Shown here: positions 44,041 through 61,387 of the stretch, in pieces
How positions within the stretch are numbered: the stretch's first letter is position 1
How the letters are laid out: each line of letters starts with the position of its first letter
Origin: Gammaproteobacteria bacterium RIFCSPHIGHO2_02_FULL_42_13
GTDB taxonomy: Bacteria; Pseudomonadota; Gammaproteobacteria; UBA12402
Assembly: GCA_001801405.1 (NCBI GenBank)
Contig: MGXQ01000012.1
Location: 156-61,602 of the forward strand
Length of the DNA stretch: 61,447 nucleotides
Reading direction: 5' to 3'
Made by a program: the position numbers and the translations under genes
The notes under the pieces: generated by a model
Databases searched by the model: none
Seen by the model: the letters and a program-made list of their open reading frames with translations, nothing else
What the model was told of the DNA's origin: nothing

Positions 44041-45113
44041 AAAACAATTTCTTCCTCTGGCTGATATGCTCTGTCCGCACGGCTGCCTAATAAATCCCAA
44101 AAATGAAAAGGAGATACGCCAACGCCTGGGCGTTTGATGGTTAGATTTTCGCTACTAAAAACATCACCCTTTCTAATCAGTTTCAACGCAACAATGCTTT
44201 TACGCACAATGGTAACATTTTCTTTTTCAGACGCTGTAATTTGTTTATTTGCATCACCTAACATCTTTTCAACTTCTCGAATAGCCGTTACCATACTAGA
44301 AAACTCACCGGGCTCTGAAGACACTTTATGATCTGGCCCCGACATTGTTTTGTCTAAAGTAAAATGCTTTTCAATCACTTGAGCACCCCGCGCAACTGCG
44401 GCAATAGCCGCACTAATGCCAACAGTATGATCTGAATATCCAACCATCTAACCAAATTCTTTATGCATCACATCCATGACGCGCAAATTTACATCTTCAA
44501 GCGGCGTTGGGTAGGCAGAATTACAATGCAACAACATCACCTTTTGCTTTAACAGCGCTTTTACCTGCGCAGTTTGATAGGCTTTTTTAAAAGCTCGCAT
44601 GCTCGGCTGCACATGCAAATTTAAATATCCAAAGGCTAACACACTTAAAGCATTTTCTATCTCCAACAATGCTGACATTCCTGTCGATACAATCACATCA
44701 CACCGTCTCTGAGCAATAGCCAACAATAATGGCGCGTTCGTTATCTCACCCGAACCTAATTTGACTTTTTTAACGTCAAAATTATCGACCAAAAAATCCA
44801 GACTTTCAACATCAAAAATCGAAAACAAAATTTCGATCGATTTCTCTCGACAATAATCCATGATCGCTGAATAATCCGACTCAGCCAATTCCAATCGTTT
44901 TAACATAGCAAATTGAGAATCATCTTTCGTCTGTTGATAGGCCGCCTTTGGCGCATGACGCGTTACTAGTCGCGACGCCTTAAACGCCTGAAATTTCACA
45001 ACATCCGCACCCGAAGCAATCGCCGCATCAATTAATTTTTTAGCTAAATCTAAAGAGCCATTGTGGTTCACCCCAATTTCTGCAATTATTTTTGTTTTCG
45101 CTATTTCAGACAT
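44037..45113 (-). pseudogene. neuB: NeuB-family nonulosonic acid synthase (legionaminic/neuraminic type) interrupted by one in-frame TAG
   Basis: The two track ORFs, 44448-45113 and 44037-44447, are contiguous and in the same frame. The minus strand reads ...AAA GAA TTT GGT TAG ATG GTT GGA TAT TCA GAT CAT ACT, which is KEFG*MVGYSDHT. The N-terminal part has IIAEIGVNHNGSLDLAKKLIDAAIASGADVVKFQ. The C-terminal part has VGYSDHTVGI and a SAF-like tail. The stop codon is at 44448-44450. Confidence 0.8.
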
Positions 45114-47426: not shown

Positions 47427-48426
47427 ATTGCCCACATTTATAATGTTTAAGATTTTCTGAACGCGAGAACCATTCAATGGTTCTCAGCAACCCTTTCTGC
47501 AAGCCCTCTATACCAGCATACGCCGGCGTCCAATCTAATAATGCTTTTGCTTTAGCGTTATCTGCCCATAATCGCTCAACCTCACTCTTTTTCGGCCGCA
47601 CCCTCTGCTCATCTGCAATCAACGTGATTTTTTTATTCATACAAGCAGCAATCAGCTTAACAAGATCGGCGATAGAAATTTCATAATTACTGCCAATATT
47701 AACGACTTCACCCATCACGCGATCAGATTCCGCCATCGCAATAAATGCATTTGCCGTATCGCCCACATAATTAAAATCTCGCGTCGGCGACAAAGAACCT
47801 AATTTAATCTCACTCGCTCCTGACGCAATTTGCGTAATAATCGTCGGAATCACTGCGCGCGTCGATTGACGCGGCCCATACGTGTTAAAGGGGCGTATCA
47901 CGCTCACCGGTGTACCAAACGCGTTATAAAAAGACAGCGCCAACTGATCCGCTCCGATTTTCGTCGCCGAATACGGCGACTGCCCTTGCAAAGGATGATC
48001 TTCCGTTATAGGAACAAACTGCGCCGTTCCATAAACCTCACTGGTTGACGTATGAATGATTTTTTCAACCCCAGCGTCTCTTGCCGCCTGCAAAACATTT
48101 AACGTTCCTTTAATATTGGTATCCACATAAGAATCCGGCGAATAATACGAATACGGAATACCAATCAATGCGGCCAAATGCATGACAATTTGACAATCTT
48201 TAACGGCATGGCGCACACCATTTGGATCACGCACATCGCCGACAAACACATCAAGGTTATTTTTAGTGGCAGCCGGCAACGCATCTAACCAGCCCCAACT
48301 ATTAAAAGAATTATATAAAACAAATGCCCGCACATCATAATTTGACGCGATGAGACGTTCCACCAAATGCGAGCCAATAAAGCCATCGGCACCAGTTACT
48401 AATATTTTTTTATTATTCAGTTTCAT
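47416..48426 (-). CDS. NAD-dependent NDP-HexNAc 4,6-dehydratase (LegB type)
   Basis: KILVTGADGFIGSHLVERL, YNSFNSWGWLD and YSATKIGAD. The start is set at MKLNNKK (ATG 48426). Confidence 0.78.
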   Translation of the reverse strand: MKLNNKKILVTGADGFIGSHLVERLIASNYDVRAFVLYNSFNSWGWLDALPAATKNNLDVFVGDVRDPNGVRHAVKDCQIVMHLAALIGIPYSYYSPDSYVDTNIKGTLNVLQAARDAGVEKIIHTSTSEVYGTAQFVPITEDHPLQGQSPYSATKIGADQLALSFYNAFGTPVSVIRPFNTYGPRQSTRAVIPTIITQIASGASEIKLGSLSPTRDFNYVGDTANAFIAMAESDRVMGEVVNIGSNYEISIADLVKLIAACMNKKITLIADEQRVRPKKSEVERLWADNAKAKALLDWTPAYAGIEGLQKGLLRTIEWFSRSENLKHYKCGQYVV

Positions 48427-49714
48427 AACCCTTCTCTTTTTCATATGGCAAATCCACCGTGCCATATAAATATTTTTCTGCAAAATGTCGGCCGATGCGA
48501 CCGTTAAAATATGTTTTAGTGAGTGCTCGGTAAGCGTTTTCCAAGTGCTTAGTATGATAAGTCTCATTGCTAATCCAGCGTAACACAGCTTGAATAAGCT
48601 TTTTCTTGAATATTACTTGCGCATCTGTTTCTTTTTGCATATTCTCTAAGTTTTCACACATTTCTTTTATCGCTTCTTGAATCTCCTTTGAAGAATTATC
48701 ATGTAAGGTATAGCGTTGATTAAATTGATGAATTTGATGAGAATCGAATGCTCCATTAATGCCAATCTCCTGCTTAAAAATTTCATTATAAGTCAAAAAT
48801 CGTTTTTGTTCATTAGAAAAAACATGCTTATAAATATAGATATCTGACGTTTTATAGGGCTGAACAAAAAGATAATCCGTCACATTTACCGCCAAAACAG
48901 GAACACCCAATAAAAAAGCCGCATCCAATATTCCTGAATTTGTTCCCAAATAAAATTTACAATTTTTTATTAAAAATAAATCCATCAACTCGGATTTATA
49001 GACTGTATTTGGATAATCTATATAATACTGATGGTATCCCAAATCCACTGAATCTCCCAGGCGAATGACCTGAAACCCTGCGGCTTTTAGACATTTCAAA
49101 CCTTCAATATAATTTTCTATATTTGAATTACGATAAGAAGAATACGAAGAATCATTATAGTAATGCTGTGTCCGTATATGCAAACAAACATAGGGCTTGT
49201 TTCGATGAATCCCCAGATGTTCCATTGTTTTTTCACAATATAATTGATCCTCATCACAAAAATATAATTTCTGTTTTTTTTCAAGAAAATATTTCCAATC
49301 AATATTGCTCACGCTAGCGGAATCAAAATATTTTAATACGTTGACATTAAACAAATCCTTGCAGCCACACCCTATAAATTGCAAATTGAGTTCTCTTAAA
49401 ATCTTTAATTTACATAAAATCGCACGGCCAGCAAACCCTATAAAAAACATGACCCCATAATAACAACCAATGACCTCATCAATCCAGAAGGGAGGCTTGC
49501 CCAAAAAAACTCCTGCCAATCTATAGACTGCACCTCTTTGTACATAGCGAAATTTTCTTTTAAAAATAGAGCTAAACGGTATGCGTTTGCGAACGAATAA
49601 AATCTGTTTATTTTGTCTCTCCGCCTTAAACAAGGCGTATAGAATTTTTTCACAGAGATTGCCAATAACAATATCATAATCTGCAACAAAAATAAATTTT
49701 TTTTTATGCACCAT
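48413..49714 (-). CDS. putative glycosyltransferase, tandem paralog A (uncharacterised family)
   Basis: Full-length similarity to the neighbouring gene 49759-51015, for example VCLHIRTQHY..RNSNIENYIE..VIRLGDSV..YYIDYPNT..SELMDLFLIKNC..GTNSGILDAAFLLGVPVLAVNV. The start is set at MVHKKKF (ATG 49714, AAGGA upstream) by alignment with the paralog. An A9 tract lies at 49697-49705. Confidence 0.6.
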   Translation of the reverse strand: MVHKKKFIFVADYDIVIGNLCEKILYALFKAERQNKQILFVRKRIPFSSIFKRKFRYVQRGAVYRLAGVFLGKPPFWIDEVIGCYYGVMFFIGFAGRAILCKLKILRELNLQFIGCGCKDLFNVNVLKYFDSASVSNIDWKYFLEKKQKLYFCDEDQLYCEKTMEHLGIHRNKPYVCLHIRTQHYYNDSSYSSYRNSNIENYIEGLKCLKAAGFQVIRLGDSVDLGYHQYYIDYPNTVYKSELMDLFLIKNCKFYLGTNSGILDAAFLLGVPVLAVNVTDYLFVQPYKTSDIYIYKHVFSNEQKRFLTYNEIFKQEIGINGAFDSHQIHQFNQRYTLHDNSSKEIQEAIKEMCENLENMQKETDAQVIFKKKLIQAVLRWISNETYHTKHLENAYRALTKTYFNGRIGRHFAEKYLYGTVDLPYEKEKGYETE

Positions 49715-49758: not shown

Positions 49759-51015
49759 CTAGCTATCCCCATATAAATAACTTGCCGCGAACTCTTTACC
49801 CACTCGACCATTAAAATATGTCTTAATTGCCACCCTACATGCATTTTCCACATGAGGCGCATAGTGCTCTTCCCTCATCCAACGATAACTACATTGATTC
49901 AGCTCTTCTTTAAACTTCTTCTGAACAACTGTTTCTTCAGATAGGCACACCAAGTTATTTAACATTTCTTTCACCGCGTCCGCAATCTCTTCTGACGTAT
50001 TTTCAATCAATTTGTATTCTTTATTAAATCTTTCAAAAACGCTAATATTACAATTAGTATGAATAATATCACCCGCTATCTGGAAAGCTTCATGAAAAGA
50101 TATTATTTTTTTCTGAACACAAGAAAAAATACGCTTGTAAATAAAAAGATCGACAGATTTATAGGGTCGCACAGATAAATAATCAGAAACATTAACCGCT
50201 AACGTAGGTGCCCCTAACAAAAGTGCCGTATCCAAAATCCCCGAATTGGTTCCCCAAAAAAACCGGCAATGTTTGATTAAAAATAAATCCATCAATTCTG
50301 ATCGAAAAGGCGTATTAGGGTAATCAATATAGTAGTCTTCATGCCCCAAAGGAACTGAATCACCCAGTCTAATAACGACTCCCCCTAAAGACCGTATATA
50401 CCTCATCGCCTCTATATAATTTTCTATGTGTGAATTTCTATGATAAGAACTATGATCGCCATGATAATGACCTGTCCTAATATGTAAACACACATACCAC
50501 TGCTCTGGATGAACGCCTAAGCGATGCAATATCGCCTGACATTTAGCCTCATCCTGAGGATATAATGAAATTTTTTGATCCTTGTTCAACAAAAAAGCCC
50601 AATCAATTTGTTGTATTGAATTCACATCAAATGTCGCATCTAAATTGATATTAAATAAATCTTGATATTCACGGCCTACTAACTGTAGTTTCATGTTTTC
50701 AATCAACCTCAATTTCCATAGAATCGACTGGCTAATAAAATTAATCCAAAATAAAAATCCATAATACAGCCCCACTATTTTAATAATACAACAATCTTTT
50801 GTAATCAGAAAAGGGCTCCGCAATCTATATACCCCACGCAATTGCCTGCGTGTAAATATTCTCCCTAAAAATCTATCACAAAATATCCATTTTCTAACAA
50901 GTTTGACTTTCTTATTTAATCTTTCTCCTTTTAACAAGGCATAAAATAAATTTTCCGAAAAATTACCAATATTAAGGTCGTCGTATAATACCAGTATAAA
51001 ACTTTTTTTACTCAT
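49759..51015 (-). CDS. putative glycosyltransferase, tandem paralog B (uncharacterised family)
   Basis: VCLHIRTGHY..RNSHIENYIE..VIRLGDSV..YYIDYPNT..SELMDLFLIKHC..GTNSGILDTALLLGAPTLAVNV. The C-terminus YFNGRVGKEFAASYLYG matches YFNGRIGRHFAEKYLYG in paralog A. Confidence 0.6.
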   Translation of the reverse strand: MSKKSFILVLYDDLNIGNFSENLFYALLKGERLNKKVKLVRKWIFCDRFLGRIFTRRQLRGVYRLRSPFLITKDCCIIKIVGLYYGFLFWINFISQSILWKLRLIENMKLQLVGREYQDLFNINLDATFDVNSIQQIDWAFLLNKDQKISLYPQDEAKCQAILHRLGVHPEQWYVCLHIRTGHYHGDHSSYHRNSHIENYIEAMRYIRSLGGVVIRLGDSVPLGHEDYYIDYPNTPFRSELMDLFLIKHCRFFWGTNSGILDTALLLGAPTLAVNVSDYLSVRPYKSVDLFIYKRIFSCVQKKIISFHEAFQIAGDIIHTNCNISVFERFNKEYKLIENTSEEIADAVKEMLNNLVCLSEETVVQKKFKEELNQCSYRWMREEHYAPHVENACRVAIKTYFNGRVGKEFAASYLYGDS

Positions 51016-51715
51016 GCAATCCCCTTGCCTCTATCTGGGCAAGCGCGTAACTTTCTAACGTACCAATATCTCGATGATATACGTCGTTATGGAAAGTATT
51101 GATATGCCCGATAAATCTAGGAATCACTTCTGTACTAAAATCAATTTTTTCTTTTTTTAACCCCGCCAAAAATTTTAACACATTCGATGAAATAATATAA
51201 ACCGCCCCGCTTGCTAAATGACTGGGGGGGCTTTTCACCTTTTCATAAAAACCAACGACAATATTATTATCATCCAACTCAACCACTCCGCACGATGTCG
51301 GATTATCTGTCTTAAAGGTCATCATTGTCATATCAACATTTTTTGGCCGCTCATAATAGGAACGTACAAAAGATTTAAAATCACAGATACACAGATTATC
51401 TGCATGCGCCATCAATACATCATCACCACCAAAAAAATCTCTATTTTTATGTAACGTTCCGCCCGTTAACAATAATTCTTCTTCATAAACGGTTTTAATA
51501 ATCGTTTTATATGGAGAATGATCAACAAACGCTTGAACTTGGTCAGCTTTATAATGCAGGTTAATTAGTATTCCTTGAGCCCCCGCAGCGACTAAATTTT
51601 CTAACCAATACGCTAATAAAGGTTTCCCATTGATAGGAACCAAGCATTTTGGCACGTAATCTGTAATCGGCTTTAATCTATTGCCAAAGCCCGCGGCTAA
51701 TAATAGCGCTTTCAT
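51008..51715 (-). CDS. sugar-1-phosphate nucleotidyltransferase (NTP_transferase, HddC/RmlA-like short form)
   Basis: MKALLLAAGFGNRLKPITDYVPKCLVPINGKPLL. 235 aa. Confidence 0.8.
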   Translation of the reverse strand: MKALLLAAGFGNRLKPITDYVPKCLVPINGKPLLAYWLENLVAAGAQGILINLHYKADQVQAFVDHSPYKTIIKTVYEEELLLTGGTLHKNRDFFGGDDVLMAHADNLCICDFKSFVRSYYERPKNVDMTMMTFKTDNPTSCGVVELDDNNIVVGFYEKVKSPPSHLASGAVYIISSNVLKFLAGLKKEKIDFSTEVIPRFIGHINTFHNDVYHRDIGTLESYALAQIEARGLHE

Positions 51716-53212
51716 TTAACTCATCATCTCTTTTAGAATTTCTTCTTGTTGCAAGGGTAAATTGCCTAGTCGCCCCACCTGACAAGCCGCCACCAACGCG
51801 CCTACATAAGCGCTTTGCCAAATATCAGCGCCAGCAGCCAACCCTAAAGACGTTCCAACTAATAAGGCATCCCCACCACCCGCAACATCTTTGGGCGCTT
51901 TATTAAATACCGGCAATCGATCTGTTAATAAATCCGCGGCTGAATTTTGCATCTCATTAACAATCATGCCTTCTGCACCGAGAGTAATCACGATATTTTT
52001 CGGATGAATTTTCTGTCGCAATTTGTCCGCCAACACAATTAATCCTGATTCGAAATCTTTTACCGCCAAGCGAATTTCCCTTTCTGTCGGCGTAACTAAT
52101 GACATGTTCTCAAATCGAGAAATATCCCCCATTTGTGAAGACGATTGACTATCCGCGGTCACAATAATATTGTGCCCCAATGCAAGCGCGGATACAGTCG
52201 CAATTAATTTTTTTGGCAAACATCCATAACTAAAATCAGAAAAAATTAATAAATCTATCTTATCTAAATGATGCCGAATATCTTCAATTATTTTTTCCTG
52301 CAACTCATTATCGATGTGATGCTGCTTTAATCGGTTGACTCTTAATAACGTCTTACCATTTGCTCGAAAACGCTGTTTATGCGTTGTTTCCCTTGTTTTA
52401 TCTGTATATAAATGTGCATCAATATGATATTCATGCATTTTTCCTTCGACAAAATCAGATAACTTATCATCACCCAATATCGAATAAAAGCTCACCTGCG
52501 CTCCCAATCCAGCCGCATGTGCCGCGACAATGCCAGCACCACCCAAAAATTTATCCGATGAGATCGGAGTCACCACAATGGTAGGATCTTCTTGACTCAT
52601 CCCGAGCGGATCACACATCACATATTCATCCACAATCGTATCGCCAATCACTAATACCTTCAGAGAAGAAAATTTCTTAACAAGTGCCGTTAAATCATTA
52701 AAATTAAAATTATGTCGACTCAGATAATCCAGTGGCTTCTCAATGCTGGATAATTCAAATCGACTAAATTCTTTTTTCAATAAATCCAATGAGGAAAAAC
52801 GAATATCGCCCGAACCAAAAACCAGTTTCCCGCCATAAGACGCCAATACCGCTTCTTCAGGATTATGAACCACTTCAAATTCACTGCCTTTCACAACGAT
52901 ATGCGGTTTTAATTTCACAATAAAATCCGCGACACTGGATTGCAAGACAAAAACATAATCGACATAATGCGTGGCACTCAGCGCTTCTAATCGCAAATGC
53001 GATGGCAACAGAGTCTTATCAGCTATATCAGGCTCCAAGGCAACCACCAAGAAGTCCCCCAACCCTTTAGCAAATTTTAACAATCGAATATGTCCAGGAT
53101 GCAGAATATTAAACCGACCCGACACTAAAACAATTTTACTATGGCGACCTTTAGATCGAATACTATCAATAACACCCTCATCATCTGTTCCGCACAATAG
53201 TGTTGCATCCAT
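51716..53212 (-). CDS. bifunctional protein: N-terminal cytidylyltransferase-like (HIGH-motif) domain plus C-terminal PfkB sugar kinase domain
   Basis: The N-terminal domain has VLVSGRFNILHPGHIRLLKFAK (GxFxxxHxGH nucleotidyltransferase motif). The C-terminal domain has GGAGIVAAHAAGLGA and DVAGGGDALLVGTSLGLAAG (PfkB anion-hole motif). The domain order is the reverse of HldE/RfaE. Confidence 0.75.
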   Translation of the reverse strand: MDATLLCGTDDEGVIDSIRSKGRHSKIVLVSGRFNILHPGHIRLLKFAKGLGDFLVVALEPDIADKTLLPSHLRLEALSATHYVDYVFVLQSSVADFIVKLKPHIVVKGSEFEVVHNPEEAVLASYGGKLVFGSGDIRFSSLDLLKKEFSRFELSSIEKPLDYLSRHNFNFNDLTALVKKFSSLKVLVIGDTIVDEYVMCDPLGMSQEDPTIVVTPISSDKFLGGAGIVAAHAAGLGAQVSFYSILGDDKLSDFVEGKMHEYHIDAHLYTDKTRETTHKQRFRANGKTLLRVNRLKQHHIDNELQEKIIEDIRHHLDKIDLLIFSDFSYGCLPKKLIATVSALALGHNIIVTADSQSSSQMGDISRFENMSLVTPTEREIRLAVKDFESGLIVLADKLRQKIHPKNIVITLGAEGMIVNEMQNSAADLLTDRLPVFNKAPKDVAGGGDALLVGTSLGLAAGADIWQSAYVGALVAACQVGRLGNLPLQQEEILKEMMS

Positions 53213-53231
53213 AGATCATTACATCATTAAA

Positions 53232-54317
53232 TTAAACAAAGTTAACATGTTCGGGCTTACGAGAAACCATCCAAAGAAAATCATTAATCGCATGCGACCG
53301 ACAATTACTATAACAAACCTTGTGAACGTCAAGCTTACTTACTTTATCGACCACTTCCCAATAACGATCACTCTCAATAATTTCCTTAAAGCTCTGCGTC
53401 GTCAGATCGCCCATGCGAAACTCTTCTTCTTTGAAATCAAAAAAAACGCCACAAGGATACAATCGACCTGTGCCGCTGGAATATAAAAGAAAGGGTGGCG
53501 CAAAACAGGTGTCATAATTTCGCTTCCCTTCATTTGTAATATGTGCCCATTTAATAATGACTTTATAAGCATCGGTACTTTTTGATTCCGCCTCTTTAAG
53601 CACACTTTCAAAGCTTGCGTATTTTCCTAATTGCTTATAAATACCCAAACCATTATCAACCGTATCGCTACATTGTTTAACGACAAAGTAATCAACGCCA
53701 ATAGCTCGCCCTAACTCAGCAAGAGCAATCACTTGATCGACGTTGGTAGGCGTCAAAACCATCTGAATACCAATGGTCACGCTTAATTTATTTTCTTTTT
53801 TCGTCCTTACACAATGCTTCATACTATCAATCATTCGATTAAACATAGGACTATTATGTACACGCTGATAGCCTTCTTCTGAGGCGGCAGATAAATTAAA
53901 TCGTATCCATTTTAAAGAAGATAACGCTTTCGCCCCTTTCTCTTCCAAATCAAATAAAACACCATTCGTTGCCAACGCAATATCAATTCCCGCCTTTGTC
54001 CCTTCTTCAATCGCATCATAAATATGGGGATTTAAGAGCGGTTCACCTTCGCCAATAAAGCCCATCGAACGAACACCACATTCTCCTGCGCTACGCATAT
54101 AGTTTAACAATGCCTCTCTTGGAAAATATTGTTCCGCCCCTTGATTATATTTATTCCCCTGAAGGGTTCCATAACAATATTCACAATGAATATTACACCC
54201 CTTGCTTAAACCCACATCAATATGAATAGGCGTTATACGCTTTCCATCTAACCAAGCATTAACACGATCAAGATGCCAGTATAATTTATGACTACCCATT
54301 CTGTATGTATCTTTCAT
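53232..54317 (-). CDS. radical SAM enzyme with a Cys-rich C-terminal (twitch/SPASM-like) region, paralog 1
   Basis: GCNIHCEYCYG (CxxxCxxC), GEGEPLL, C-terminal cysteines (DTCF, YPCG, VCYSNC) and a tail ending HVNFV. 361 aa. Confidence 0.8.
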   Translation of the reverse strand: MKDTYRMGSHKLYWHLDRVNAWLDGKRITPIHIDVGLSKGCNIHCEYCYGTLQGNKYNQGAEQYFPREALLNYMRSAGECGVRSMGFIGEGEPLLNPHIYDAIEEGTKAGIDIALATNGVLFDLEEKGAKALSSLKWIRFNLSAASEEGYQRVHNSPMFNRMIDSMKHCVRTKKENKLSVTIGIQMVLTPTNVDQVIALAELGRAIGVDYFVVKQCSDTVDNGLGIYKQLGKYASFESVLKEAESKSTDAYKVIIKWAHITNEGKRNYDTCFAPPFLLYSSGTGRLYPCGVFFDFKEEEFRMGDLTTQSFKEIIESDRYWEVVDKVSKLDVHKVCYSNCRSHAINDFLWMVSRKPEHVNFV

Positions 54318-54321
54318 AGCG

Positions 54322-55176
54322 CTACTCCCCTTTTATTAAAACATTACAATAATCTTGAACGGCAGCCTGCCAACTGCGCAATTTTTTTATTTTGGACGAA
54401 GTAATGGGTGTGTTTAAATTTTTTTGCCCAATATAGGGGAAATCCCTAAACGAACCCGCCCTAATCGGAACCTGCAGATTTAAGCACTTGCCAATTTCCA
54501 GCATAAATTCATATAACGAAACCGCACCCTCATTCGCGATATGATAAAGTCCAAACGCATTTTGCTCATTCAAAATTTCTTTTACTTTGCAAGCAATATC
54601 TACACTATACGTTGGTGACAAAAACACATCATCGGCCACAAACAATTCTTTCTGTCCATTTTCAATTCGCTGTAACATCTTTTCAACAAATTGATTCTTT
54701 TTCGTCGCCTCACCAAACAATACAGAAAGCCTAAAAATATAGTACCGTTTGGCATAGGCCATCACCATGCAGTCCCCGCCATATTTTGTCACCCCATAAA
54801 GATTCAGCGGACAAGGCGAATCCTCTTCTGTATAAAAAGCCCCTTTCTCGTTATTACCAAATACAGCATCCGTTGAAAAATGCACTAATAAAAAGTTTCT
54901 TTTAACAGAAAGTTCCGCCAAAATTTTGGGGTACAACGTATTCAATAAAAACGCTTTTTCCGGCTCTTGTTCACACGGATCAATTCCCAAAAAAGCAACT
55001 GTGTTGATCACAATATCCGGATTTAATTCTTCAATTAATTTTTCAACCGAATCAAATTGGCTCGCATCAAAATCATGGCTATTTTTTCCCACCACTTCAT
55101 AATCACCACTCAATACTTTCGTAAGAGCAACCCCCATCTTTCCCGTGTGTCCGAGCAATAATATTTTTTTTATCAC
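54322..55176 (-). CDS. RmlD-like NDP-4-ketosugar reductase (SDR, RmlD substrate-binding family)
   Basis: KILLLGHTGKMG and YGVTKYGGD (YxxxK). 284 aa. Confidence 0.7.
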   Translation of the reverse strand: MIKKILLLGHTGKMGVALTKVLSGDYEVVGKNSHDFDASQFDSVEKLIEELNPDIVINTVAFLGIDPCEQEPEKAFLLNTLYPKILAELSVKRNFLLVHFSTDAVFGNNEKGAFYTEEDSPCPLNLYGVTKYGGDCMVMAYAKRYYIFRLSVLFGEATKKNQFVEKMLQRIENGQKELFVADDVFLSPTYSVDIACKVKEILNEQNAFGLYHIANEGAVSLYEFMLEIGKCLNLQVPIRAGSFRDFPYIGQKNLNTPITSSKIKKLRSWQAAVQDYCNVLIKGE

Positions 55177-56093
55177 TATTTTTTTTCCAGCCTCATTACG
55201 TTATCGACAATATGCTCTGCTGAAAGTCCAAATCTTTTTCGGAGACCTGTGATACTATGAACCGCATGAATAAAGCCGTAAGGAATTCCCATCACATGCA
55301 GTTTCCATGCAACAGTCGTTGCCATACATGCTTGCATTAAAATATTACCTAGTCCAGAATTTTCAAAATGCTCTTCAACAACCACAACGTGCTTTACATC
55401 ATCTGTCATTTTGCACAATGATCCAAAGTCCAATGGCTGCAACATCGGAATAGAAATAAGTTTCGGATGTATATTTTTGCTCTTTAAAATCTCTGCCGCC
55501 TTCATCACATCATCTGCAATCGAACCATGAAAAACAATCGCCACCTCTTTTCCATCTTTTATAAGTTGCGGCTTTGTAATGTCAAATTTTTCTCTCTCAT
55601 GTATATTGGGTTCACCGCGTTTAGCCAAACGAATATATGTCGGGGAATCACTCGTAAATGAATACTCCGCTGCCAAACGTGCCTCTATCGGATCAATCGG
55701 CGAAATGATTTTCAAATTGGGCAAGGTACGCGCCAACGCTAAATCCTCAACAGAATAATGCGTCATGCCAGCCGGCGCATAAGTAACCCCACTACCAACC
55801 CCAATCAAAACAACGGGTATATTTTGATAACAGATATCATTCCGCACTTGCTCATAACAACGATATAAGACAAAGGGAATAATATTATAAACATATACCT
55901 TAAATCCCACCAACCCCATGCCCGCGGCAAAACCAATCGCATTCTGCTCGGCAATGCCCATGTTTTTAAATTTATTTGGGTATTGTTTTTGCAAACCTTC
56001 AAACAGACCCAGCCCCGCATCACCCGAGAGCATGAAAAAATCTTTATGACTCGAATGCGTTTTGATTAATGTTTCAATAAATGTATTTCTCAT
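55176..56093 (-). CDS. transketolase, C-terminal (pyrimidine-binding) subunit
   Basis: GIAEQNAIGFAAGMGLVGFK and a downstream transketolase C-terminal-domain pattern. 305 aa. Confidence 0.85.
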   Translation of the reverse strand: MRNTFIETLIKTHSSHKDFFMLSGDAGLGLFEGLQKQYPNKFKNMGIAEQNAIGFAAGMGLVGFKVYVYNIIPFVLYRCYEQVRNDICYQNIPVVLIGVGSGVTYAPAGMTHYSVEDLALARTLPNLKIISPIDPIEARLAAEYSFTSDSPTYIRLAKRGEPNIHEREKFDITKPQLIKDGKEVAIVFHGSIADDVMKAAEILKSKNIHPKLISIPMLQPLDFGSLCKMTDDVKHVVVVEEHFENSGLGNILMQACMATTVAWKLHVMGIPYGFIHAVHSITGLRKRFGLSAEHIVDNVMRLEKK

Positions 56094-56111
56094 AATTAGC
56101 CTATACTCGCC

Positions 56112-56909
56112 TTAACTTAATACTGTCTCAGATAATTCTAAGAATGCTTTTTCTTTAATTTCATCAGTCACCATATAATAATGCCATACTAACTGATCTT
56201 CCATAAAAGAAACCCCTTTGCCTTTAACCGTTTTTGCGATAATAATTTTTGGTTTGCCCGAATATTCCGCTCGCAATGCTATTTCTAATTGTGCGTGATC
56301 ATGGCCATCTACTTCTATAACACTCCAACCAAACGCTTCCCATTTATCTCGTACCGGTTCAAAGTGACATATCTCTTTTGCACGCCCATATCCTTGCAAA
56401 TTATTATAATCCATAATCACCGTCAAATTATCTAATCCCAAATCTGCAGAAAACATTGCACCTTCCCAAATCGAGCCCTCTTGAGACTCTCCATCGCCCA
56501 AAACGATATATACATGGCGATCTATTTTTTTCTGTTTATAGGCATACGCCATCCCCAAGCCGATATTAAATCCATGCCCCAAAGATCCCGCAGACACTTC
56601 TACGCCCGGCACAGAAAAACGATCAAGATGTCCCGGCAGAAAACCACCATCCAAATAATAAGAATCGATATGTTTTTTCTCGATAATTCCTTTCTGGTAT
56701 AACGCTGCATATAAAGCCATGGCCGCCTGCCCCTTGCTCAGTATAAAAATATCACGCTCATCCCAATTGGATAATCGCAAAATTTTATGATACAAAACCG
56801 CCAGAATATCGACACAAGAAAGCGCAGAGCCCACATGCGCGCTCTGAGATTTATTGGCCATCTCAATAATAATTTTTCTTAATTCATTCGCTTGATCCAT
56901 TGTCTTCAT
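56112..56909 (-). CDS. transketolase, N-terminal (ThDP-binding) subunit
   Basis: SKGQAAMALYAAL, GSLGHGFNIGLGMA and the ThDP motif LGDGESQEGSIWE. 265 aa. Confidence 0.85.
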   Translation of the reverse strand: MKTMDQANELRKIIIEMANKSQSAHVGSALSCVDILAVLYHKILRLSNWDERDIFILSKGQAAMALYAALYQKGIIEKKHIDSYYLDGGFLPGHLDRFSVPGVEVSAGSLGHGFNIGLGMAYAYKQKKIDRHVYIVLGDGESQEGSIWEGAMFSADLGLDNLTVIMDYNNLQGYGRAKEICHFEPVRDKWEAFGWSVIEVDGHDHAQLEIALRAEYSGKPKIIIAKTVKGKGVSFMEDQLVWHYYMVTDEIKEKAFLELSETVLS

Positions 56910-56918
56910 ATACCTATC

Positions 56919-57911
56919 CTATTTTCCCAAACACTCAAACCATTCTTTCGTCGCCGCCTCAATCGATGCGGGTTCCCAAACCGGCGCCTCACGCCAATAC
57001 TCTATATTATCCAGCATGATCTGCACCCCCTCTTCAAAACTGACTTCTGCTTCCCAATTCAAAAGTTTTTTTATTTTCGTAATATCCGCAAAGGTGCAAT
57101 CGGGCTCGCCTGGCCTTTTGGGAAGATATATTTTTTTCCCTCTCAATAAATCCACCAACCGGTTAACTGAATAGGTCTGGTCGCTACCAACGTTCATCAC
57201 CTCGCCTGAAATATCCGACTGCGCAGCCATATAACATGCACGCACAACATCTGTCACAAACGTAAAATCTCGCGTCTGCTCACCATCGCCTACTATCGTA
57301 AAGGGTTTCCCGGCTAATTTTTGCGCCAAAAATACGCCAAACACCGCACCATACGTTCCATTGGTACGAACACGTGGACCATACACATTAAAAAATCTTA
57401 AACTCACGACCGGCAAATGATAAATCTTATGCCAATTCAACACATACTGCTCACCCAAATATTTTGTCAACGCATAAGGGTATTGCGGTGAAATAGCGAC
57501 CGTTTCAGGCGTTGGATAAATATCGGGAATTCCATAACAAGAGGAAGAAGCCGCATACACTAATTTTTTAACTTTAGCTTTTTGTGCAACTTCCAATACG
57601 CGTATCGTTCCATCCACATTCGCCCGATGATAGGTAATAGGATCATTAATGGATGGCACAATATCTGCTAATGCCGCATAATGAAAAACATAATCCACAT
57701 CTTTAAAATAAGGCGTTAAATCGCTCTCATAATCAGCAATATCACAATTAAAAAATTTTAAACGATCATTGTTTTGATGTTGTGCCAAATTTTCCAATCG
57801 GCCATTACTTAAATTATCTAATACAACAACGTCATAACCATTTTCTAATAAAAAATCCACCATGTGACTGCCAATAAAACCCGCGCCACCTGTTACCAAT
57901 GCGTTAGACAT
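56919..57911 (-). CDS. NAD-dependent sugar epimerase/dehydratase (GalE/WbpP-like extended SDR)
   Basis: [19 protein letters not shown] and YALTKYLGE (YxxxK). 330 aa. Confidence 0.8.
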   Translation of the reverse strand: MSNALVTGGAGFIGSHMVDFLLENGYDVVVLDNLSNGRLENLAQHQNNDRLKFFNCDIADYESDLTPYFKDVDYVFHYAALADIVPSINDPITYHRANVDGTIRVLEVAQKAKVKKLVYAASSSCYGIPDIYPTPETVAISPQYPYALTKYLGEQYVLNWHKIYHLPVVSLRFFNVYGPRVRTNGTYGAVFGVFLAQKLAGKPFTIVGDGEQTRDFTFVTDVVRACYMAAQSDISGEVMNVGSDQTYSVNRLVDLLRGKKIYLPKRPGEPDCTFADITKIKKLLNWEAEVSFEEGVQIMLDNIEYWREAPVWEPASIEAATKEWFECLGK

Positions 57912-57920
57912 TTGGTCCCC

Positions 57921-59015
57921 TCAAATAAAATTAACATGTTTGTTTGGATTTTTTAATTCCCATAAATATCGATTGACTTTATCCATTCGACAATTCACCC
58001 GACATTGCTTAATATCCAATTGCTTGCGAACATACTCAACATTTTTCTTGCGTCGTTCGCCTTCCCACAATTCTTTGAATCCCGCCTGATTTAAATTACC
58101 ATAACAAAATTCATCCTGCTTTAAATAGGCACTACACCCATATAACGAACCATCGGTCATTACATACGCCCAAAAAAATGGGGTAGAATAACATTTTTGA
58201 TATCGATCTTGATCGCCCACCAAAAGATTCATGGTTTGTGAACGAAATACCACGTCGAAGCCACGATCTTCCAATGTTTTTAATTCCAATTCCAAATCCA
58301 TCATCGATTCATAGGTTAAATTTTCATATCGTTTCGTTTCACTGTATAAATGCTGGGAATATGGCTTAATCACCACATAATCGACCCCCAACTCTTTCAT
58401 TTTTTTTGCGAGGGTCACCGCTTCATCAATATTTTCAGGTAATAACAACATTTGTGCGCCAACAACACAATCATAATTATTTTGTTTTTTTGTCTTGATG
58501 ACTAATTCTATATTTTTTAACGTCCGGTCAAAATCTTTTTCCTGCGTGCGATGAATCTTGGCATACGATTCTGGCGTGCCGGCATTAATGCTAATTTTCA
58601 TCCATGACAAATTTCGAACGAGCTCATCAACATAATCCGCGCGCATCGCCACCATATTAGTCGTTAACGCTGTATCGATGCCCTGCACCGAACAATAACT
58701 CAACACACCCGGCAAAGGCTTCCACAACAACGGCTCTCCCTCACCACCGAACATCACGCTTTTAATTCCTAACGAACCCATTTCGGCCAAAATTATTCTT
58801 AGTCGAGTTTCATCCCATTGAATGTTTTGATATCCCACATAATCGACGGCGCAAAACACACAGCGATGATTACAACCACCATAAGGTGAAACCTCAACAT
58901 ATATCGGATATATTTTCTTTAATTTTTCCCAATCATCGCCCGCATTTAACCACTCTGCGATGCGCGCAGGATGACAAGTAATTTTATGACTATCTATACA
59001 ATAACGATCGCCCAT
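57921..59015 (-). CDS. radical SAM enzyme with a Cys-rich C-terminal region, paralog 2
   Basis: GCNHRCVFCAV (CxxxCxxC), GEGEPLL, C-terminal cysteines (QKCY, YGCS, EFCYG, QCRVNC) and a tail ending HVNFI. It is colinear with the 53232-54317 product. Confidence 0.8.
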   Translation of the reverse strand: MGDRYCIDSHKITCHPARIAEWLNAGDDWEKLKKIYPIYVEVSPYGGCNHRCVFCAVDYVGYQNIQWDETRLRIILAEMGSLGIKSVMFGGEGEPLLWKPLPGVLSYCSVQGIDTALTTNMVAMRADYVDELVRNLSWMKISINAGTPESYAKIHRTQEKDFDRTLKNIELVIKTKKQNNYDCVVGAQMLLLPENIDEAVTLAKKMKELGVDYVVIKPYSQHLYSETKRYENLTYESMMDLELELKTLEDRGFDVVFRSQTMNLLVGDQDRYQKCYSTPFFWAYVMTDGSLYGCSAYLKQDEFCYGNLNQAGFKELWEGERRKKNVEYVRKQLDIKQCRVNCRMDKVNRYLWELKNPNKHVNFI

Positions 59016-59590
59016 TACGCTTCCACCAATGATACATAATATGAATAAATAATATGATTTAATATCATATGCATATCTTCCACCAACCCATAATTACCCT
59101 TAGCCGTATTCACATGAAACTTAACATCGCTTAATGATTTTAAACGCCCTCCATCAAAGCCCGTGACACCGACAATAATAGCGCCTTTTGTCTTTGCATA
59201 TTCAACTGCTTTTAATATATTGGGCGAGTTGCCGCTGCAAGAAATGGCAATAATAACATCCTGTGGCTTCACCACGTCTCGGAGCTGATAATAAAATATA
59301 TTATCGTAGCCGACATCATTCGCAAGCGCCGTGCAAACAGACGCGTTATCGGCTAAATTAATGATCTTAAATTTACGAATATCCCGACGATTTAAGCCCG
59401 CACCCAAATCATTCACCATATGCGCCGCCGTTGCCGCACTACCCCCATTGCCTAAAATATATATTCTCGCCTGCTGCTCAATCGCTTTTTCTAAGCATGC
59501 CACTATCGCTGACACAGAAGATCTATCCACCTTTTTTAAAAGTGCACTCAATCTTTCCAAATAATTCAATGTAAAATTTTCAATATCCAT
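59015..59590 (-). CDS. gmhA: SIS-domain phosphoheptose (sedoheptulose-7-phosphate) isomerase-like protein
   Basis: ILGNGGSAATAAHMVNDL and ISCSGNSPNILKA. The 191-aa length is typical of GmhA. Confidence 0.8.
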   Translation of the reverse strand: MDIENFTLNYLERLSALLKKVDRSSVSAIVACLEKAIEQQARIYILGNGGSAATAAHMVNDLGAGLNRRDIRKFKIINLADNASVCTALANDVGYDNIFYYQLRDVVKPQDVIIAISCSGNSPNILKAVEYAKTKGAIIVGVTGFDGGRLKSLSDVKFHVNTAKGNYGLVEDMHMILNHIIYSYYVSLVEA

Positions 59591-59593
59591 CGG

Positions 59594-61387
59594 TTACCTC
59601 ATATTTGCCATTTTTTGAAATTCTAAATTTGCCGACATTAAGGATTCATATTTTCCTGTGTCCACAATCTTTCCTTTTTCCATCATATAAATCACATCAC
59701 ATTCTTTCAAAGTCGTTAAGCGATGCGCAATAATAATGATCGTTTTTTGGTGGGATAAATTATGTATGGCGTCCATAATGGCCAATTCTGTAATTCCATC
59801 CAACGAACTCGTCGCCTCATCCAAAATAAGTACGCCAGGATCACGATATAAAGCGCGCGCGATCCCAATGCGCTGTCGTTGTCCGCCACTTAATCGTACA
59901 CCTCTTTCACCCACAACGGTCTGATATTGAAGCGGAAGTTCTTTCACAATAAAATCATGCAAATTAGCAATGCGAGCGGCACGTTCAACAGCAGCATAAT
60001 CAATATTTTCTTTTTCTATGCCAAACGCAATATTACTCGCGATAGTATTGTCCAGCAAAAAAATCTGTTGAGGAACATAACCAATATTGGCTTGCCAATT
60101 GGGCAAATTATCCCTATTAATCACTAAATTATCAACCACTAACGCCCCTGATTGATATGATAGCATGCCTAAAATAATATCAACCAATGTCGTTTTCCCC
60201 GCGCCCGTTGTCCCCACCAATCCAACCGTCGTATTGGCTTGAACAACAAAATTAAAATTAGAAAAAATGGGGCAAGTCGCATTCGGATAGGAAAATCGTA
60301 TCGCATTCAGCTGCAATGTTTTTTGTATGCTTAATTTATTCGACGGCATGCTATTTTCTTTGTTGATAACTAGAGATGTCAACAAATCATGGCGCACTAA
60401 ATCCAAGGATGCAAAGCCCCCTTTCAGCGAACTCAGTATCATAAAAATAGTTTGTAATGCCGGTAATAACCGATATCCGGCAAACACATAGATACCCAAA
60501 ATAGGCAAAATCGTTGCCGCACTGTGCTGAGCAGCCAACATATATATAACAATTAAAAAAACACCGCCAAAAGCAATACTTTCCAAAATATACTTCGGCA
60601 TCGTACTAATAATTTGTAACCGCGCTTTCGATGACGTATATTTTTCAGTGGATCGTGTAAATTGATTCAGAAAAAAGCGAGATAATTTCAAAAATTTAAT
60701 CTCTTTGACCCCCCCAAATGATTCATTCAGCAGTTGAAACCGCGCTTCTTGAGATGTCACCATATCAACACTAATACGCCCCAAACGTTTCCGAATAAAA
60801 GCATAGATAATGCCATAAACACCACCCATAATTATCGACAGAAACACGGCCAATTTAAAATTAACGATCATCAGCAAAAGCACAATAAAAACTACGGCAA
60901 ATAACTTCGTGAACAGCTGCATGCTATACATAATAATGCCATGACTCACCACCTCCGTCTCAGTAATAATATTTTTCATGAGCGCCGATGTGTTTTGATT
61001 CAAAAAGAATTCATACGGATGGGATAAATATTTTTCTAACAGGCGCGAGGATATTTTACTCTCCTGTTTCCCCATAAATTTCCACATAAACCAATTATTG
61101 AGCGCGCCCAACGCATTAGCCATCACCAAAACAAAAAACAAGACAAGCCCCGCAATAATTAAAAAACGGTGCGGACTAGATGCATGAGAAAGTTGATAGA
61201 AATACAATAATTTTTTATGTGTTTGAATAGCATCAGGATCTGCGACCACGACAATAAAAGGCATCACAAAAGCAATGCCAATAACATCAACGATAGCTGC
61301 AACTAACATTGGAAACAAAAGCAATCCCGCCTTAATGCGATCGCCTTTATCTAGCAATGCAATGATCGTTTTGAGCATCTGAAACAT
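59594..61387 (-). CDS. ABC exporter, fused transmembrane and ATPase domains (MsbA/PglK-like half-transporter)
   Basis: Six N-terminal hydrophobic helices, then Walker A GTTGAGKTTL, signature LSGGQRQRIGIARAL and Walker B VLILDEATSSLD. 597 aa. It is the first gene of the minus-strand array in this window. Confidence 0.85.
   Translation of the reverse strand: MFQMLKTIIALLDKGDRIKAGLLLFPMLVAAIVDVIGIAFVMPFIVVVADPDAIQTHKKLLYFYQLSHASSPHRFLIIAGLVLFFVLVMANALGALNNWFMWKFMGKQESKISSRLLEKYLSHPYEFFLNQNTSALMKNIITETEVVSHGIIMYSMQLFTKLFAVVFIVLLLMIVNFKLAVFLSIIMGGVYGIIYAFIRKRLGRISVDMVTSQEARFQLLNESFGGVKEIKFLKLSRFFLNQFTRSTEKYTSSKARLQIISTMPKYILESIAFGGVFLIVIYMLAAQHSAATILPILGIYVFAGYRLLPALQTIFMILSSLKGGFASLDLVRHDLLTSLVINKENSMPSNKLSIQKTLQLNAIRFSYPNATCPIFSNFNFVVQANTTVGLVGTTGAGKTTLVDIILGMLSYQSGALVVDNLVINRDNLPNWQANIGYVPQQIFLLDNTIASNIAFGIEKENIDYAAVERAARIANLHDFIVKELPLQYQTVVGERGVRLSGGQRQRIGIARALYRDPGVLILDEATSSLDGITELAIMDAIHNLSHQKTIIIIAHRLTTLKECDVIYMMEKGKIVDTGKYESLMSANLEFQKMANMR

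Follow-up and report, generated by a model that had tools for sequence, protein, structure and literature searches.

A surface-glycan cassette combining a heptose-like front end, two radical-SAM enzymes and a split transketolase-like enzyme: a possible route to a sugar enlarged by two carbons

The question raised by this locus is which sugar could be made where genes of heptose activation stand beside radical S-adenosylmethionine (SAM) enzymes and a transketolase-like protein. The window analyzed here, the whole of a 61,447-nucleotide stretch of contig MGXQ01000012.1 from Gammaproteobacteria bacterium RIFCSPHIGHO2_02_FULL_42_13, contains a cassette of nine open reading frames (ORFs), all on the minus strand at 51008–59590. 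In gene order these encode a GmhA-like SIS isomerase, a radical-SAM enzyme (rSAM_A), a GalE-like short-chain dehydrogenase/reductase (SDR), the two subunits of a thiamine diphosphate (ThDP)-dependent, split transketolase-like enzyme (TK_N and TK_C), an RmlD-like reductase, a second radical-SAM enzyme (rSAM_B), a fusion of a nucleotidyltransferase with a PfkB kinase (termed reversed HldE) and an HddC-like nucleotidyltransferase (Table 1). An earlier note on this DNA had described nine contiguous, co-oriented genes with these domains, and ORF calling and Pfam searches bore this out, each ORF lying exactly where the note had placed it.

The cassette is read here as part of one long surface-glycan operon, which would provide a tailoring route for a nucleotide-activated sugar of the heptose type. 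Conversion of a nucleoside diphosphate (NDP)-heptose to a keto or deoxy-keto sugar, followed by the gain of two carbons through the ThDP enzyme, is a reading to which, on comparison of related cassettes, we would give roughly even chances.

Recurrence of the cassette and exchange of its ThDP enzyme

Related loci were gathered through similarity to rSAM_A or rSAM_B. A genome scan with rSAM_A, which finds only relatives sharing short exact peptides, returned 50 loci at 44–98% identity, all but two of them at 49–57%, from Gammaproteobacteria, Betaproteobacteria, Nitrospira, Planctomycetota, Arcobacteraceae, Sericytochromatia and others. The ORFs of these loci were clustered and the window proteins mapped onto the clusters; many of the loci are contigs of metagenome-assembled genomes (MAGs) and many are truncated, and counts are given both for all 50 loci and for the 22 with full flanks. 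The reversed HldE gene was found in 41 of the 50 (20 of the 22) and the GmhA-like SIS gene, which lies beside it, in 40 (18 of the 22). A GalE-like SDR at the threshold of at least 55% identity was likewise present in 40 loci (18 of the 22), with actual identities of 59–69%, a two-subunit ThDP enzyme in 37 (19 of the 22) and a second radical-SAM gene in 23 (16 of the 22). This arrangement is far beyond chance. The core set of rSAM_A, SDR, GmhA, reversed HldE and ThDP enzyme, usually with the second radical-SAM gene, recurs across phyla, namely in Gamma- and Betaproteobacteria, Nitrospira, Planctomycetota, Campylobacterota, Sericytochromatia and Firmicutes. The neighborhood search that the earlier note had proposed, as a check on whether the nine genes are conserved as a unit, thus recovered a recurring core, but showed TK_N, TK_C, RmlD and rSAM_B to be swappable and the nucleoside triphosphate (NTP)-transferase to accompany only one clade of reversed HldE.

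The exact window proteins were found only on metagenome contigs, and the TK_N sequence recurs with a 100% match on five independent ones (L001–L005). The nearest genome is a Pseudomonadota MAG (L007, JBBTCW010000006), whose rSAM_A is 98% identical. At the DNA level the window and L007 are 91% identical from 61388 to 56920, that is from the ABC transporter gene to the stop codon of the GalE-like SDR gene, and 80% identical again from 53134 on, with no similarity across TK_N, TK_C, the RmlD-like gene and rSAM_B. In that block L007 carries, at its positions 12097–14670, a different TK_N, a 166-residue subunit with the pyrimidine-binding (Pyr) domain only, and another radical-SAM gene. Because similarity is lost across four genes that lie between alike flanks, these genes have been exchanged as a block, and the swap marks them as one functional unit. 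The difference looks like serotype-style cassette exchange.

The same block is found in distant genomes. In Candidatus Scalindua (L060) a cytidylyltransferase gene, reversed HldE, the SIS gene, rSAM_A (45% identity) and a NUDIX gene are followed by TK_N (56%), TK_C (50%), the RmlD-like gene (59%) and rSAM_B (63%) in the order of the window, then by an ABC transporter gene and later by LegB and LegC. Acetivibrio cellulolyticus (L058) has two radical-SAM genes, TK_N, TK_C and a methyltransferase gene, with the RmlD-like (54%) and rSAM_B (64%) genes as a pair, together with a GalE-like SDR (63%), an SIS gene and genes of legionaminic acid (Leg) type. The NUDIX hydrolase of Scalindua (6971–7390) occupies the position of the GalE-like SDR, and the cytidylyltransferase-like gene ahead of reversed HldE is a stand-alone gene of 160 residues; the two together hint at nucleotide exchange on the sugar.

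The ThDP enzyme differs in kind among the related loci. In the 37 loci with such an enzyme beside the radical-SAM gene, the slot is filled by the α and β subunits of an E1-type enzyme in 29, by a full split transketolase in six and by TK_N with a Pyr-only subunit in two. The E1 pair of these sister cassettes (L032 and L043 among them) scores 305 and 295 bits against models of pyruvate dehydrogenase (PDH) E1, below their cut-offs, and a TK_N-like protein with a Pyr-domain-only subunit of 162–166 residues occurs in L007, L008 and Arcobacter sp. FWKO B. E1 enzymes form hydroxyethyl-ThDP from pyruvate and transketolases form dihydroxyethyl-ThDP. The common denominator of both forms is the transfer of two carbons to a carbonyl, and their interchange at one position is the strongest functional clue in the cassette; three non-orthologous ThDP enzymes in one slot would be expected if the step were a C2 carboligation with different donors.

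The window form of this enzyme resembles a transketolase in its cofactor site and departs from one in its substrate site. The top PDB match of TK_N is the split-chain transketolase of Carboxydothermus (6yak, 227 bits), and that of TK_C is 6yaj (134.7 bits), followed by DXS entries. Canonical cofactor features are present, with the ThDP motif GDGESQEG...DYNN in TK_N and the cofactor-activating Glu (GIAEQN) in TK_C. At the substrate site, TK_C reads GVGSG...YAPAGMTHY where a genuine split transketolase reads THAG...GEDGASHQ, and it does so in all five members of the family that were aligned. The family motif YAPxGxTH stands in the place of canonical GEDGxSHQ and the preceding TH is also gone, leaving the substrate-site His and Asp absent. 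With these residues lost across the family, and an E1 enzyme substituted in related loci, a housekeeping transketolase was rejected as an explanation of the gene pair. In the gene order SDR, TK_N, TK_C, RmlD-like, the ThDP enzyme is set in a nucleotide-sugar cluster between a preceding oxidoreductase and a following ketoreductase, a context that it shares with Scalindua, A. cellulolyticus and Arcobacter.

Radical-SAM enzymes, their reductase partners and the heptose-like front end

rSAM_A and rSAM_B are paralogues with 31–32% identity, and both score above the Pfam cut-offs for Radical_SAM and SPASM. The CX3CX2C motif lies at C48/C52/C55 in rSAM_A, which also has invariant C275, C294, C338 and C342, and at C41/C45/C48 in rSAM_B, which has invariant C271, C289, C335 and C339. 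Because only four C-terminal cysteines are invariant, both proteins probably hold one auxiliary Fe-S cluster, of a twitch-like kind, instead of the seven-cysteine SPASM set. No NCBIfam family came near its cut-off with rSAM_A, and a search of the PDB with its single sequence gave no match. The family model of DesII (TIGR04426) scored 33.8 and 39.7 bits with the two proteins against a cut-off of 450. Structure models made with AlphaFold2 (pLDDT 88 and 87.7, respectively) have DesII as their best fold match, at E 7e-17 and TM 0.67 for rSAM_A (8hzv) and E 3e-16 and TM 0.63–0.67 for rSAM_B, with SuiB, SkfB, anSME and then BlsE and viperin as lower matches of both. A profile search of PDB sequences led to the same general group.

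DesII acts on a TDP-sugar and releases a keto sugar; BtrN and anSME, which possess auxiliary clusters, oxidize an alcohol to a carbonyl, and AprD4 and viperin carry out dehydrations. The modeled folds support radical chemistry on a sugar nucleotide that would yield a carbonyl, with the reaction itself not fixed by them. The cassette proteins share with the group of DesII, BtrN, AprD4, BlsE and viperin the CX3CX2C cluster; they differ from DesII in sequence, at 14–17% identity, and from the group in their four invariant C-terminal cysteines and a conserved N-terminal SHK..H..R..W segment. AprD4 is partnered by the reductase AprD3, and each radical-SAM enzyme of the cassette is likewise paired with a reductase. 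A GalE-like SDR lies beside rSAM_A in 40 of the 50 loci and an RmlD-like gene beside rSAM_B in three phyla, including the orthologs in Scalindua and A. cellulolyticus at the identities given above, and this adjacency across loci suggests that each radical-SAM enzyme travels with its own SDR.

Both radical-SAM families are large, with 5068 homologues of rSAM_A, at 50–69% identity across phyla, and 1251 of rSAM_B, which reach 61–70% identity in Brocadiales, Thermodesulfovibrionales, Elusimicrobiota and A. cellulolyticus. One rSAM_A homologue (57% identity) comes from a eukaryote transcriptome set (Anaeramoeba flamelloides) and one rSAM_B homologue (69%) from a MAG labeled Nanoarchaeota, occurrences that a symbiont, contamination or gene transfer may explain.

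The GalE-like SDR reached neither the galE cut-off of NCBIfam (182 bits against 262) nor that of the HldD model (127.7 against 274.6). Its closest PDB entries are 4-epimerases of UDP-hexose, UDP-GlcNAc and UDP-GlcA, and it carries the motifs GGAGFIGS, AASSSCYG and YxxxK without the TDE pair of dehydratases. A role as 4,6-dehydratase was ruled out by the absence of the TDE motif and by these 4-epimerase matches. The RmlD-like protein scored 192.9 bits with the NCBIfam rmlD model (cut-off 224, not reached), and its top PDB matches are dTDP-4-dehydrorhamnose reductases.

At the front end, the closest relatives of three proteins are enzymes of heptose biosynthesis, each at a distance. The SIS isomerase matched NCBIfam gmhA (TIGR00441) best, at 113.6 bits against a cut-off of 209.45, and its top PDB match is GmhA of Burkholderia pseudomallei (87 bits), with which it shares the metal and active-site His, with Asp in place of Glu. 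In the fusion protein the nucleotidyltransferase is N-terminal and the PfkB kinase C-terminal. It scored 198.8 bits with rfaE_dom_I (cut-off 345), 71 bits with rfaE_dom_II (cut-off 181.5) and 166 bits with the full HldE model NF008454 (cut-off 521), none of which was reached. Its PDB matches are HldA (4e84) for the kinase half and HldC (5x9q) for the nucleotidyltransferase half, and it carries the HPGH and GGGD motifs. The HddC-like transferase scored 72.7 bits with NCBIfam HddC (NF049965; cut-off 300, not reached), and the proteins of the Yersinia 6-deoxy-D-manno-heptose pathway 6jq8/5xhw are its top PDB matches, over its full length (86.9 bits). These best family and PDB matches to GmhA, HldA/HldC and HddC support a front end that is heptose-like, as the earlier note had proposed. 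Its description of a fusion of kinase and nucleotidyltransferase was right as to both domains and wrong as to their order, which is the reverse of that in HldE, and its view that the cassette holds enzymes outside textbook pathways agrees with the failure of every cassette protein to reach an equivalog (ortholog) cut-off in NCBIfam. Because none is reached, all nine proteins appear to be divergent paralogues.

The reversed HldE is a family in its own right. It has 790 library representatives at E≤1e-30, of which the best 150 are all co-linear over their full length, and a search with the protein of locus L030, from the majority clade (clade M), gave 5515 proteins at E≤1e-30. It splits into two clades, with the reversed domain order in both. 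The HddC-like transferase always follows reversed HldE in loci of the window clade (clade W: the window, L007, L008, L017, L050 and L062), and only there; the majority clade has no such gene behind it. The related families as a whole comprise thousands of homologues in many phyla and have neither a curated family nor a solved structure.

A candidate pathway, its rivals and its known relatives

In the candidate pathway, the GmhA-like isomerase would convert sedoheptulose-7-phosphate to heptose-7-phosphate, and the PfkB half of reversed HldE would phosphorylate C1. The 7-phosphate would be removed by a phosphatase encoded elsewhere, unlinked to the cassette, and the HldC-like half, the HddC-like transferase or both would form the NDP-heptose. 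rSAM_A, as a DesII-like enzyme with one auxiliary Fe-S site, would act with the GalE-like SDR to furnish the sugar ring with a keto or deoxy-keto group by an oxygen-free route; its chemistry could be radical dehydrogenation or dehydration, by comparison with DesII, BtrN, AprD4 and viperin. The split transketolase-like enzyme would then transfer a hydroxyacetyl C2 unit onto the carbonyl, giving a branched sugar with a tertiary alcohol, and in the sister cassettes the unit added by the E1 pair would be acetyl, drawn from pyruvate. Ketone reduction and a further radical reaction, catalyzed by the RmlD-like enzyme and rSAM_B, may complete the sugar, and the TIGR04372 glycosyltransferases and the ABC transporter would use the product. 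Keto acceptors are known to be made by 4,6-dehydratases and by the E1/E3 system that uses pyridoxamine phosphate and a [2Fe-2S] cluster. If the pathway holds, radical-SAM enzymes replace the classical dehydratase route to keto sugars, and bacterial surface glycans gain a new class of sugars that derive from heptose and are branched or of higher carbon number.

Several observations weigh against this pathway. Transketolases normally use aldehyde and not ketone acceptors. The co-occurrence of the genes is conditional on the radical-SAM proteins through which the loci were collected. Since a NUDIX hydrolase takes the place of the SDR in Scalindua and Arcobacter sp. FWKO B has a single radical-SAM gene, the steps are not uniform. 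The TK_N of the window reads SKGQ at residue 61, where all six aligned relatives read SKGH. DesII has no auxiliary cysteine set, and a similarity of TM 0.63–0.67 does not fix the chemistry, while the GalE-like SDR resembles an epimerase, a type that normally retains its keto intermediate bound. Moreover, no cassette protein attains an ortholog cut-off, and their substrates could therefore differ from heptose. The earlier note had seen neither a GmhB-type phosphatase nor an HldD-type epimerase, and indeed the scan of ORFs from 3138 to 61387 revealed no HAD/GmhB-type phosphatase and no HldD ortholog; the GmhB and HldD genes could lie elsewhere in the genome. Branching of a sugar by a split transketolase has yet to be demonstrated in vitro (PMC12247030).

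The preference of transketolase and E1 enzymes for aldehyde acceptors, which is established enzymology, is also what favors a linear product. In this scheme, a radical-SAM diol dehydratase would act on the C6–C7 glycol of the heptose to give a terminal aldehyde, the transketolase would add two carbons, and the RmlD-like enzyme would reduce the resulting linear deoxy-nonose. A vicinal diol is present in the heptose side chain, the radical-SAM fold group includes dehydratases, viperin among the matches, and the earlier note had allowed for extension too. Against it, the documented uses of E1-type enzymes on sugars, and the proposed use of split transketolases, are all branchings at ketones (PMC12247030), and the residues by which an aldose, as acceptor or donor, is positioned have been lost in the TK_C family; no evidence separates extension from branching. 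Extension of the chain is considered unlikely. The front end, in turn, might activate a sugar phosphate other than a heptose, such as a hexulose, octulose or alditol phosphate, which the rest of the cassette would then tailor. Scores far under the cut-offs (113.6 against 209 for GmhA, 166 against 521 for HldE and 72.7 against 300 for HddC) are in line with this, as are the status of the reversed order as a separate family with thousands of members and the need of Coxiella burnetii for its reversed CBU_0678 in O-antigen synthesis while CBU1655 makes the core heptose. With a heptose enzyme as the best structural or family match of three separate proteins, and with the metal and active-site residues of GmhA mostly conserved, a non-heptose substrate appears rather unlikely.

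The two remaining alternatives take parts of the cassette out of the pathway. The split transketolase might only supply a precursor, sedoheptulose-7-phosphate or another ketose phosphate, upstream of the isomerase and leave the nucleotide sugar untouched. Sedoheptulose-7-phosphate is an established transketolase product, and the closest solved relative of the gene pair (6yak/6yaj) is a genuine split transketolase. However, the same slot holds a PDH-type E1 pair, unable to make sedoheptulose-7-phosphate, in 29 loci, the second subunit in L007, L008 and L062 is a Pyr-only protein of 162–166 residues, the canonical substrate-site His and Asp are absent, and the gene is always beside a radical-SAM gene and not the isomerase; such a role is therefore very improbable. 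Part of the module might instead serve the neighboring legionaminic acid pathway, whose LegB and LegC genes lie directly downstream and pass their cut-offs; the SIS protein would then be an isomerase of the PtmF type, and the NTP-transferase would produce GDP-GlcN(Ac) as PtmE does. Of 53 related loci, 12 have Leg-type genes within 10 kb of the cassette, and the SIS gene of A. cellulolyticus adjoins LegG-, PglD- and NeuB-type genes. Nevertheless, in 40 of 50 loci, the majority of which have no Leg genes, the SIS gene stands beside reversed HldE, a separate PtmE-type CBS-NTP transferase is already present at 42344–43459, and the NTP-transferase of the cassette is closest to HddC; this assignment is the least probable of those considered.

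Among known systems, the ADP-heptose pathway (GmhA/HldE/GmhB/HldD) shares with the cassette an SIS isomerase, a PfkB C1-kinase and a HIGH-motif nucleotidyltransferase. The cassette differs from it in the reversed fusion order, in scores below the ortholog cut-offs, in having no GmhB or HldD and in lying in a locus of the O-antigen or capsule type and not with core genes. The pathways to GDP-heptose and 6-deoxyheptoses (GmhA, HddA, GmhB, HddC; DmhA/DmhB; Campylobacter, Yersinia) are similar in that the extra NTP-transferase is nearest to Yersinia HddC and that SDRs tailor a heptose for a surface polysaccharide. They differ in that the cassette has no GHMP kinase HddA, none being found when this pathway was tested for, and adds two radical-SAM enzymes and a ThDP enzyme. 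To our knowledge, tailoring in those pathways employs only SDR and cupin enzymes, as described in work of the Raushel group. One such tailoring enzyme, Cj1430, is listed in PMC9095892.

Branching of keto sugars by ThDP enzymes is better documented. E1-type alphaKADH2 enzymes put acetyl branches on C3 or C4 keto sugars of aldgamycin, kibdelomycin, avilamycin and others, according to a 2025 review, which cites knockouts, feeding experiments and in vitro work on KbDH (PMC12247030). Split-gene transketolases are proposed there to move a hydroxyacetyl unit onto a keto sugar in miharamycin and amipurimycin biosynthesis; the 13 known to date all come from Streptomyces, and in vitro assays have been made on none of them (PMC12247030). 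In yersiniose biosynthesis, YerE and YerF branch the sugar and then reduce it (Steitz et al. 2022, PMC9306805). The cassette resembles these systems in placing a two-subunit ThDP enzyme beside keto-forming and keto-reducing enzymes and in the interchange of E1 and split transketolase forms across related cassettes. It differs in that the known cases use 2,6- or 3,6-dideoxy-keto hexoses from 4,6-dehydratases and belong to actinomycete antibiotics or enterobacterial O-antigens, and the cassette, with its heptose-like front end and radical-SAM enzymes, belongs to surface glycans of many phyla. If the candidate pathway is correct, the cassette is the first physiological setting outside Streptomyces in which branching of nucleotide sugars by split transketolases can be tested. 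The earlier idea of a sugar branched or extended by a C2 unit is strengthened by E1 α/β proteins in the split transketolase position, as that class is known to add acetyl branches (PMC12247030). The accompanying statement that the chemistry is undescribed has to be narrowed; C2 branching of keto sugars by ThDP enzymes has been described (shown for YerE and E1-type enzymes, proposed for split transketolases), and the undescribed part is its pairing with radical-SAM enzymes and a heptose front end.

Literature searches joining transketolase, radical SAM, heptose and O-antigen gave no match, a paper on septacidin being an unrelated hit, and a paper on bradyrhizose gives no link to the cassette. 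An origin of a caryophyllose- or erwiniose-type sugar from heptose was rejected, YerE-type acyl branching of a 3,6-dideoxy-4-keto hexose explaining both sugars (PMC9306805). The families named for a "sporadic carbohydrate cluster," TIGR04323 (LIC12192 family) and TIGR04324 (2-oxoglutarate-Fe(II) oxygenase), occur inside the transketolase-type sister cassettes L010, L030 and L049, and two TIGR04372 glycosyltransferases lie behind the window cassette. Curators thus appear to have noticed the neighborhood without assigning a function, these names standing for conserved neighbors only. An NCBIfam scan of 22 window ORFs (ten genes at 51008–61387, the two glycosyltransferases and ten ORFs at 32612–48567) gave neither TIGR04323 nor TIGR04324; for the remaining ORFs of the window, Pfam alone was used.

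A further known system close to the cassette is the O-antigen region of Coxiella burnetii, the agent of Q fever, whose O-antigen, part of a virulence-linked surface coat, contains two branched sugars, virenose and dihydrohydroxystreptose. CBU_0678, an HldE paralogue with reversed domains, is essential for the phase I O-antigen and its function is not known, while a normal HldE, CBU1655, makes the core heptose; the region also contains CBU0674 (phosphoheptose isomerase/GmhA), CBU0676 (UDP-glucose 4-epimerase-like) and CBU0677 (Beare et al. 2018, PMC5843353). CBU_0673 belongs to the histidinol-phosphatase family (GmhB-like), CBU_0686 is annotated as PDH E1 β and CBU_0692/0693 as PDH E1 β/α (Moses et al. 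2017, PMC5423948). The role of CBU_0678 is still called unclear in a preprint and a review of 2026. The window has a reversed HldE, a GmhA-like isomerase, a GalE-like SDR and a two-subunit ThDP enzyme; by the annotations in these papers CBU_0673–0693 would hold genes of these four kinds as well, besides further SDRs, and with ThDP enzymes of the E1 type it resembles the E1-type sister cassette. What the earlier note had said of this region is partly borne out, in that reversed HldE, GmhA and E1 subunits are documented; no record of transketolase or Fe-S/radical-SAM genes in it was found in the literature searched. To judge by the numbering of D455, CBU_0678 would fall into the majority clade and not into that of the window. 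None of the 150 library representatives of reversed HldE matched the Coxiella positions P74, G369 and D455 (Beare 2018), and a homologue search with the most co-linear majority-clade protein (L030) returned relatives of at least 71% identity only, with no Coxiella entry among them.

A link between the cassette and the problem of Coxiella lipopolysaccharide synthesis is credible, and the cassette offers a route into it, CBU_0678 and its neighbors being required for full-length O-antigen. A bolder proposal joins both: the product would be a heptose-derived nine-carbon sugar, branched or extended, with its acceptor made by radical-SAM chemistry and hydroxyacetyl transferred onto the nucleotide sugar in the manner of a transketolase, and the E1-type sister cassette would be the route behind the branched sugars of CBU_0673–0693. 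This is offered tentatively, and is more doubtful than the gain of two carbons by an NDP-heptose. Non-pathogenic cultured carriers, such as Arcobacter sp. FWKO B (CP041403.1, 1,007,882–1,028,976), Herbaspirillum lusitanum RL21-008-BIB-A (NZ_JAQQFM010000005.1, 400,009–421,100) and A. cellulolyticus (JH556653.1, 1,914,444–1,935,523), would make the question tractable; Malaciobacter molluscorum is another cultured carrier.

Gene layout and the surrounding glycan locus

ORF calling was mechanical. The genes of the cassette are tightly packed (Table 1), with one base (59015) common to the SIS and rSAM_A genes and another (55176) to the TK_C and RmlD-like genes. The fusion gene ends at 51716 and the NTP-transferase gene starts at 51715, the latter overlapping the next gene, on the glycosyltransferase side, by 8 bases. 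A scan for promoters and terminators showed no excess and no intergenic terminator within the cassette.

Table 1. Genes and segments of the cassette and its immediate flanks (window positions)
Feature	Position	Strand	Basis
GmhA-like SIS isomerase, 191 aa	59015–59590	-	Pfam SIS_2 75.2 bits
rSAM_A, 364 aa	57921–59015	-	Pfam Radical_SAM + SPASM
GalE/WbpP-like SDR, 330 aa	56919–57911	-	Pfam Epimerase 212.6 bits; GDP_Man_Dehyd
TK_N, ThDP/diphosphate-binding subunit, split transketolase-like, 265 aa	56112–56909	-	Pfam Transketolase_N 127.7 bits
TK_C, pyrimidine-binding + C-terminal subunit, split transketolase-like, 305 aa	55176–56093	-	Pfam Transket_pyr + Transketolase_C
RmlD-like, predicted NAD(P)H 4-ketoreductase, 284 aa	54322–55176	-	Pfam RmlD_sub_bind 201.5 bits
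rSAM_B, rSAM_A paralogue, 361 aa	53232–54317	-	Pfam Radical_SAM + SPASM
Reversed HldE, 498 aa	51716–53212	-	Pfam CTP_transf_like residues 30–111; PfkB 185–483
HddC-like sugar-1-phosphate nucleotidyltransferase, 235 aa	51008–51715	-	Pfam NTP_transferase 106.8 bits
Swappable sub-module TK_N, TK_C, RmlD-like, rSAM_B	53135–56919	-	DNA comparison with L007
Two paralogous TIGR04372 glycosyltransferases, 418 + 444 aa	48413–51015	-	NCBIfam 157.5 / 162 bits, cut-off 45
PglK/MsbA-like ABC transporter	59594–61387	-	Pfam ABC_membrane + ABC_tran; NCBIfam PglK 339.9 bits, below cut-off

The module extends beyond the nine genes. The PglK-like ABC transporter gene lies 3 bases upstream of the cassette, and such a gene adjoins the cassette in Scalindua as well. 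Downstream, the two TIGR04372 glycosyltransferases, which gave no Pfam match, are likely users of the cassette product; homologues of them follow the NTP-transferase in L007 and L008, and L007 is without one of the two. Beyond this pair lie LegB and LegC, then the remaining legionaminic acid set, and farther along the window genes for a CDP-glucose 4,6-dehydratase, aminotransferases, methyltransferases, many glycosyltransferases and an initiating transferase of the WecA/MraY type. By Pfam and NCBIfam scans of its ORFs, the window is almost wholly one minus-strand glycan locus.

The legionaminic acid set (37157–48567, minus strand) comprises LegB, LegC, LegG, LegH-like, PtmE-like and CMP-synthetase-like genes. 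The related loci with Leg-type genes within 10 kb of the cassette are L007, L008, L020, L023, L029, L034, L038, L040, L051, L052, L058 and L060. In the window, the NeuB/LegI-type synthase gene (44037–45113, minus strand) contains one in-frame stop, between KEFG and MVGYSDH, that divides it into two abutting ORFs, which could reflect a pseudogene, a sequencing error or read-through. The CDP-glucose 4,6-dehydratase (41175–42281, minus strand) scores 457.8 bits and passes its equivalog cut-off of 278, indicating that the locus makes a CDP-6-deoxy sugar too.

A third radical-SAM gene of the locus (32612–35834, minus strand) encodes a B12-binding protein of 653 residues, probably of the methyltransferase type, and adjoins a gene for an FkbM-family methyltransferase; a comparable B12 radical-SAM gene adjoins NeuB in A. 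cellulolyticus. The sole plus-strand genes of the window, at 39928–40725 and 12658–15551, encode an OmpA-like β-barrel protein and, respectively, a 605-residue protein with no Pfam match followed by a glycosyltransferase of the GT2/GtrA type. Also inside the glycan locus, at 7862–11592 on the minus strand, are genes for a heparinase II/III-like protein and a 715-residue fusion of a zinc-type alcohol dehydrogenase domain with a GFO/IDH/MocA oxidoreductase.

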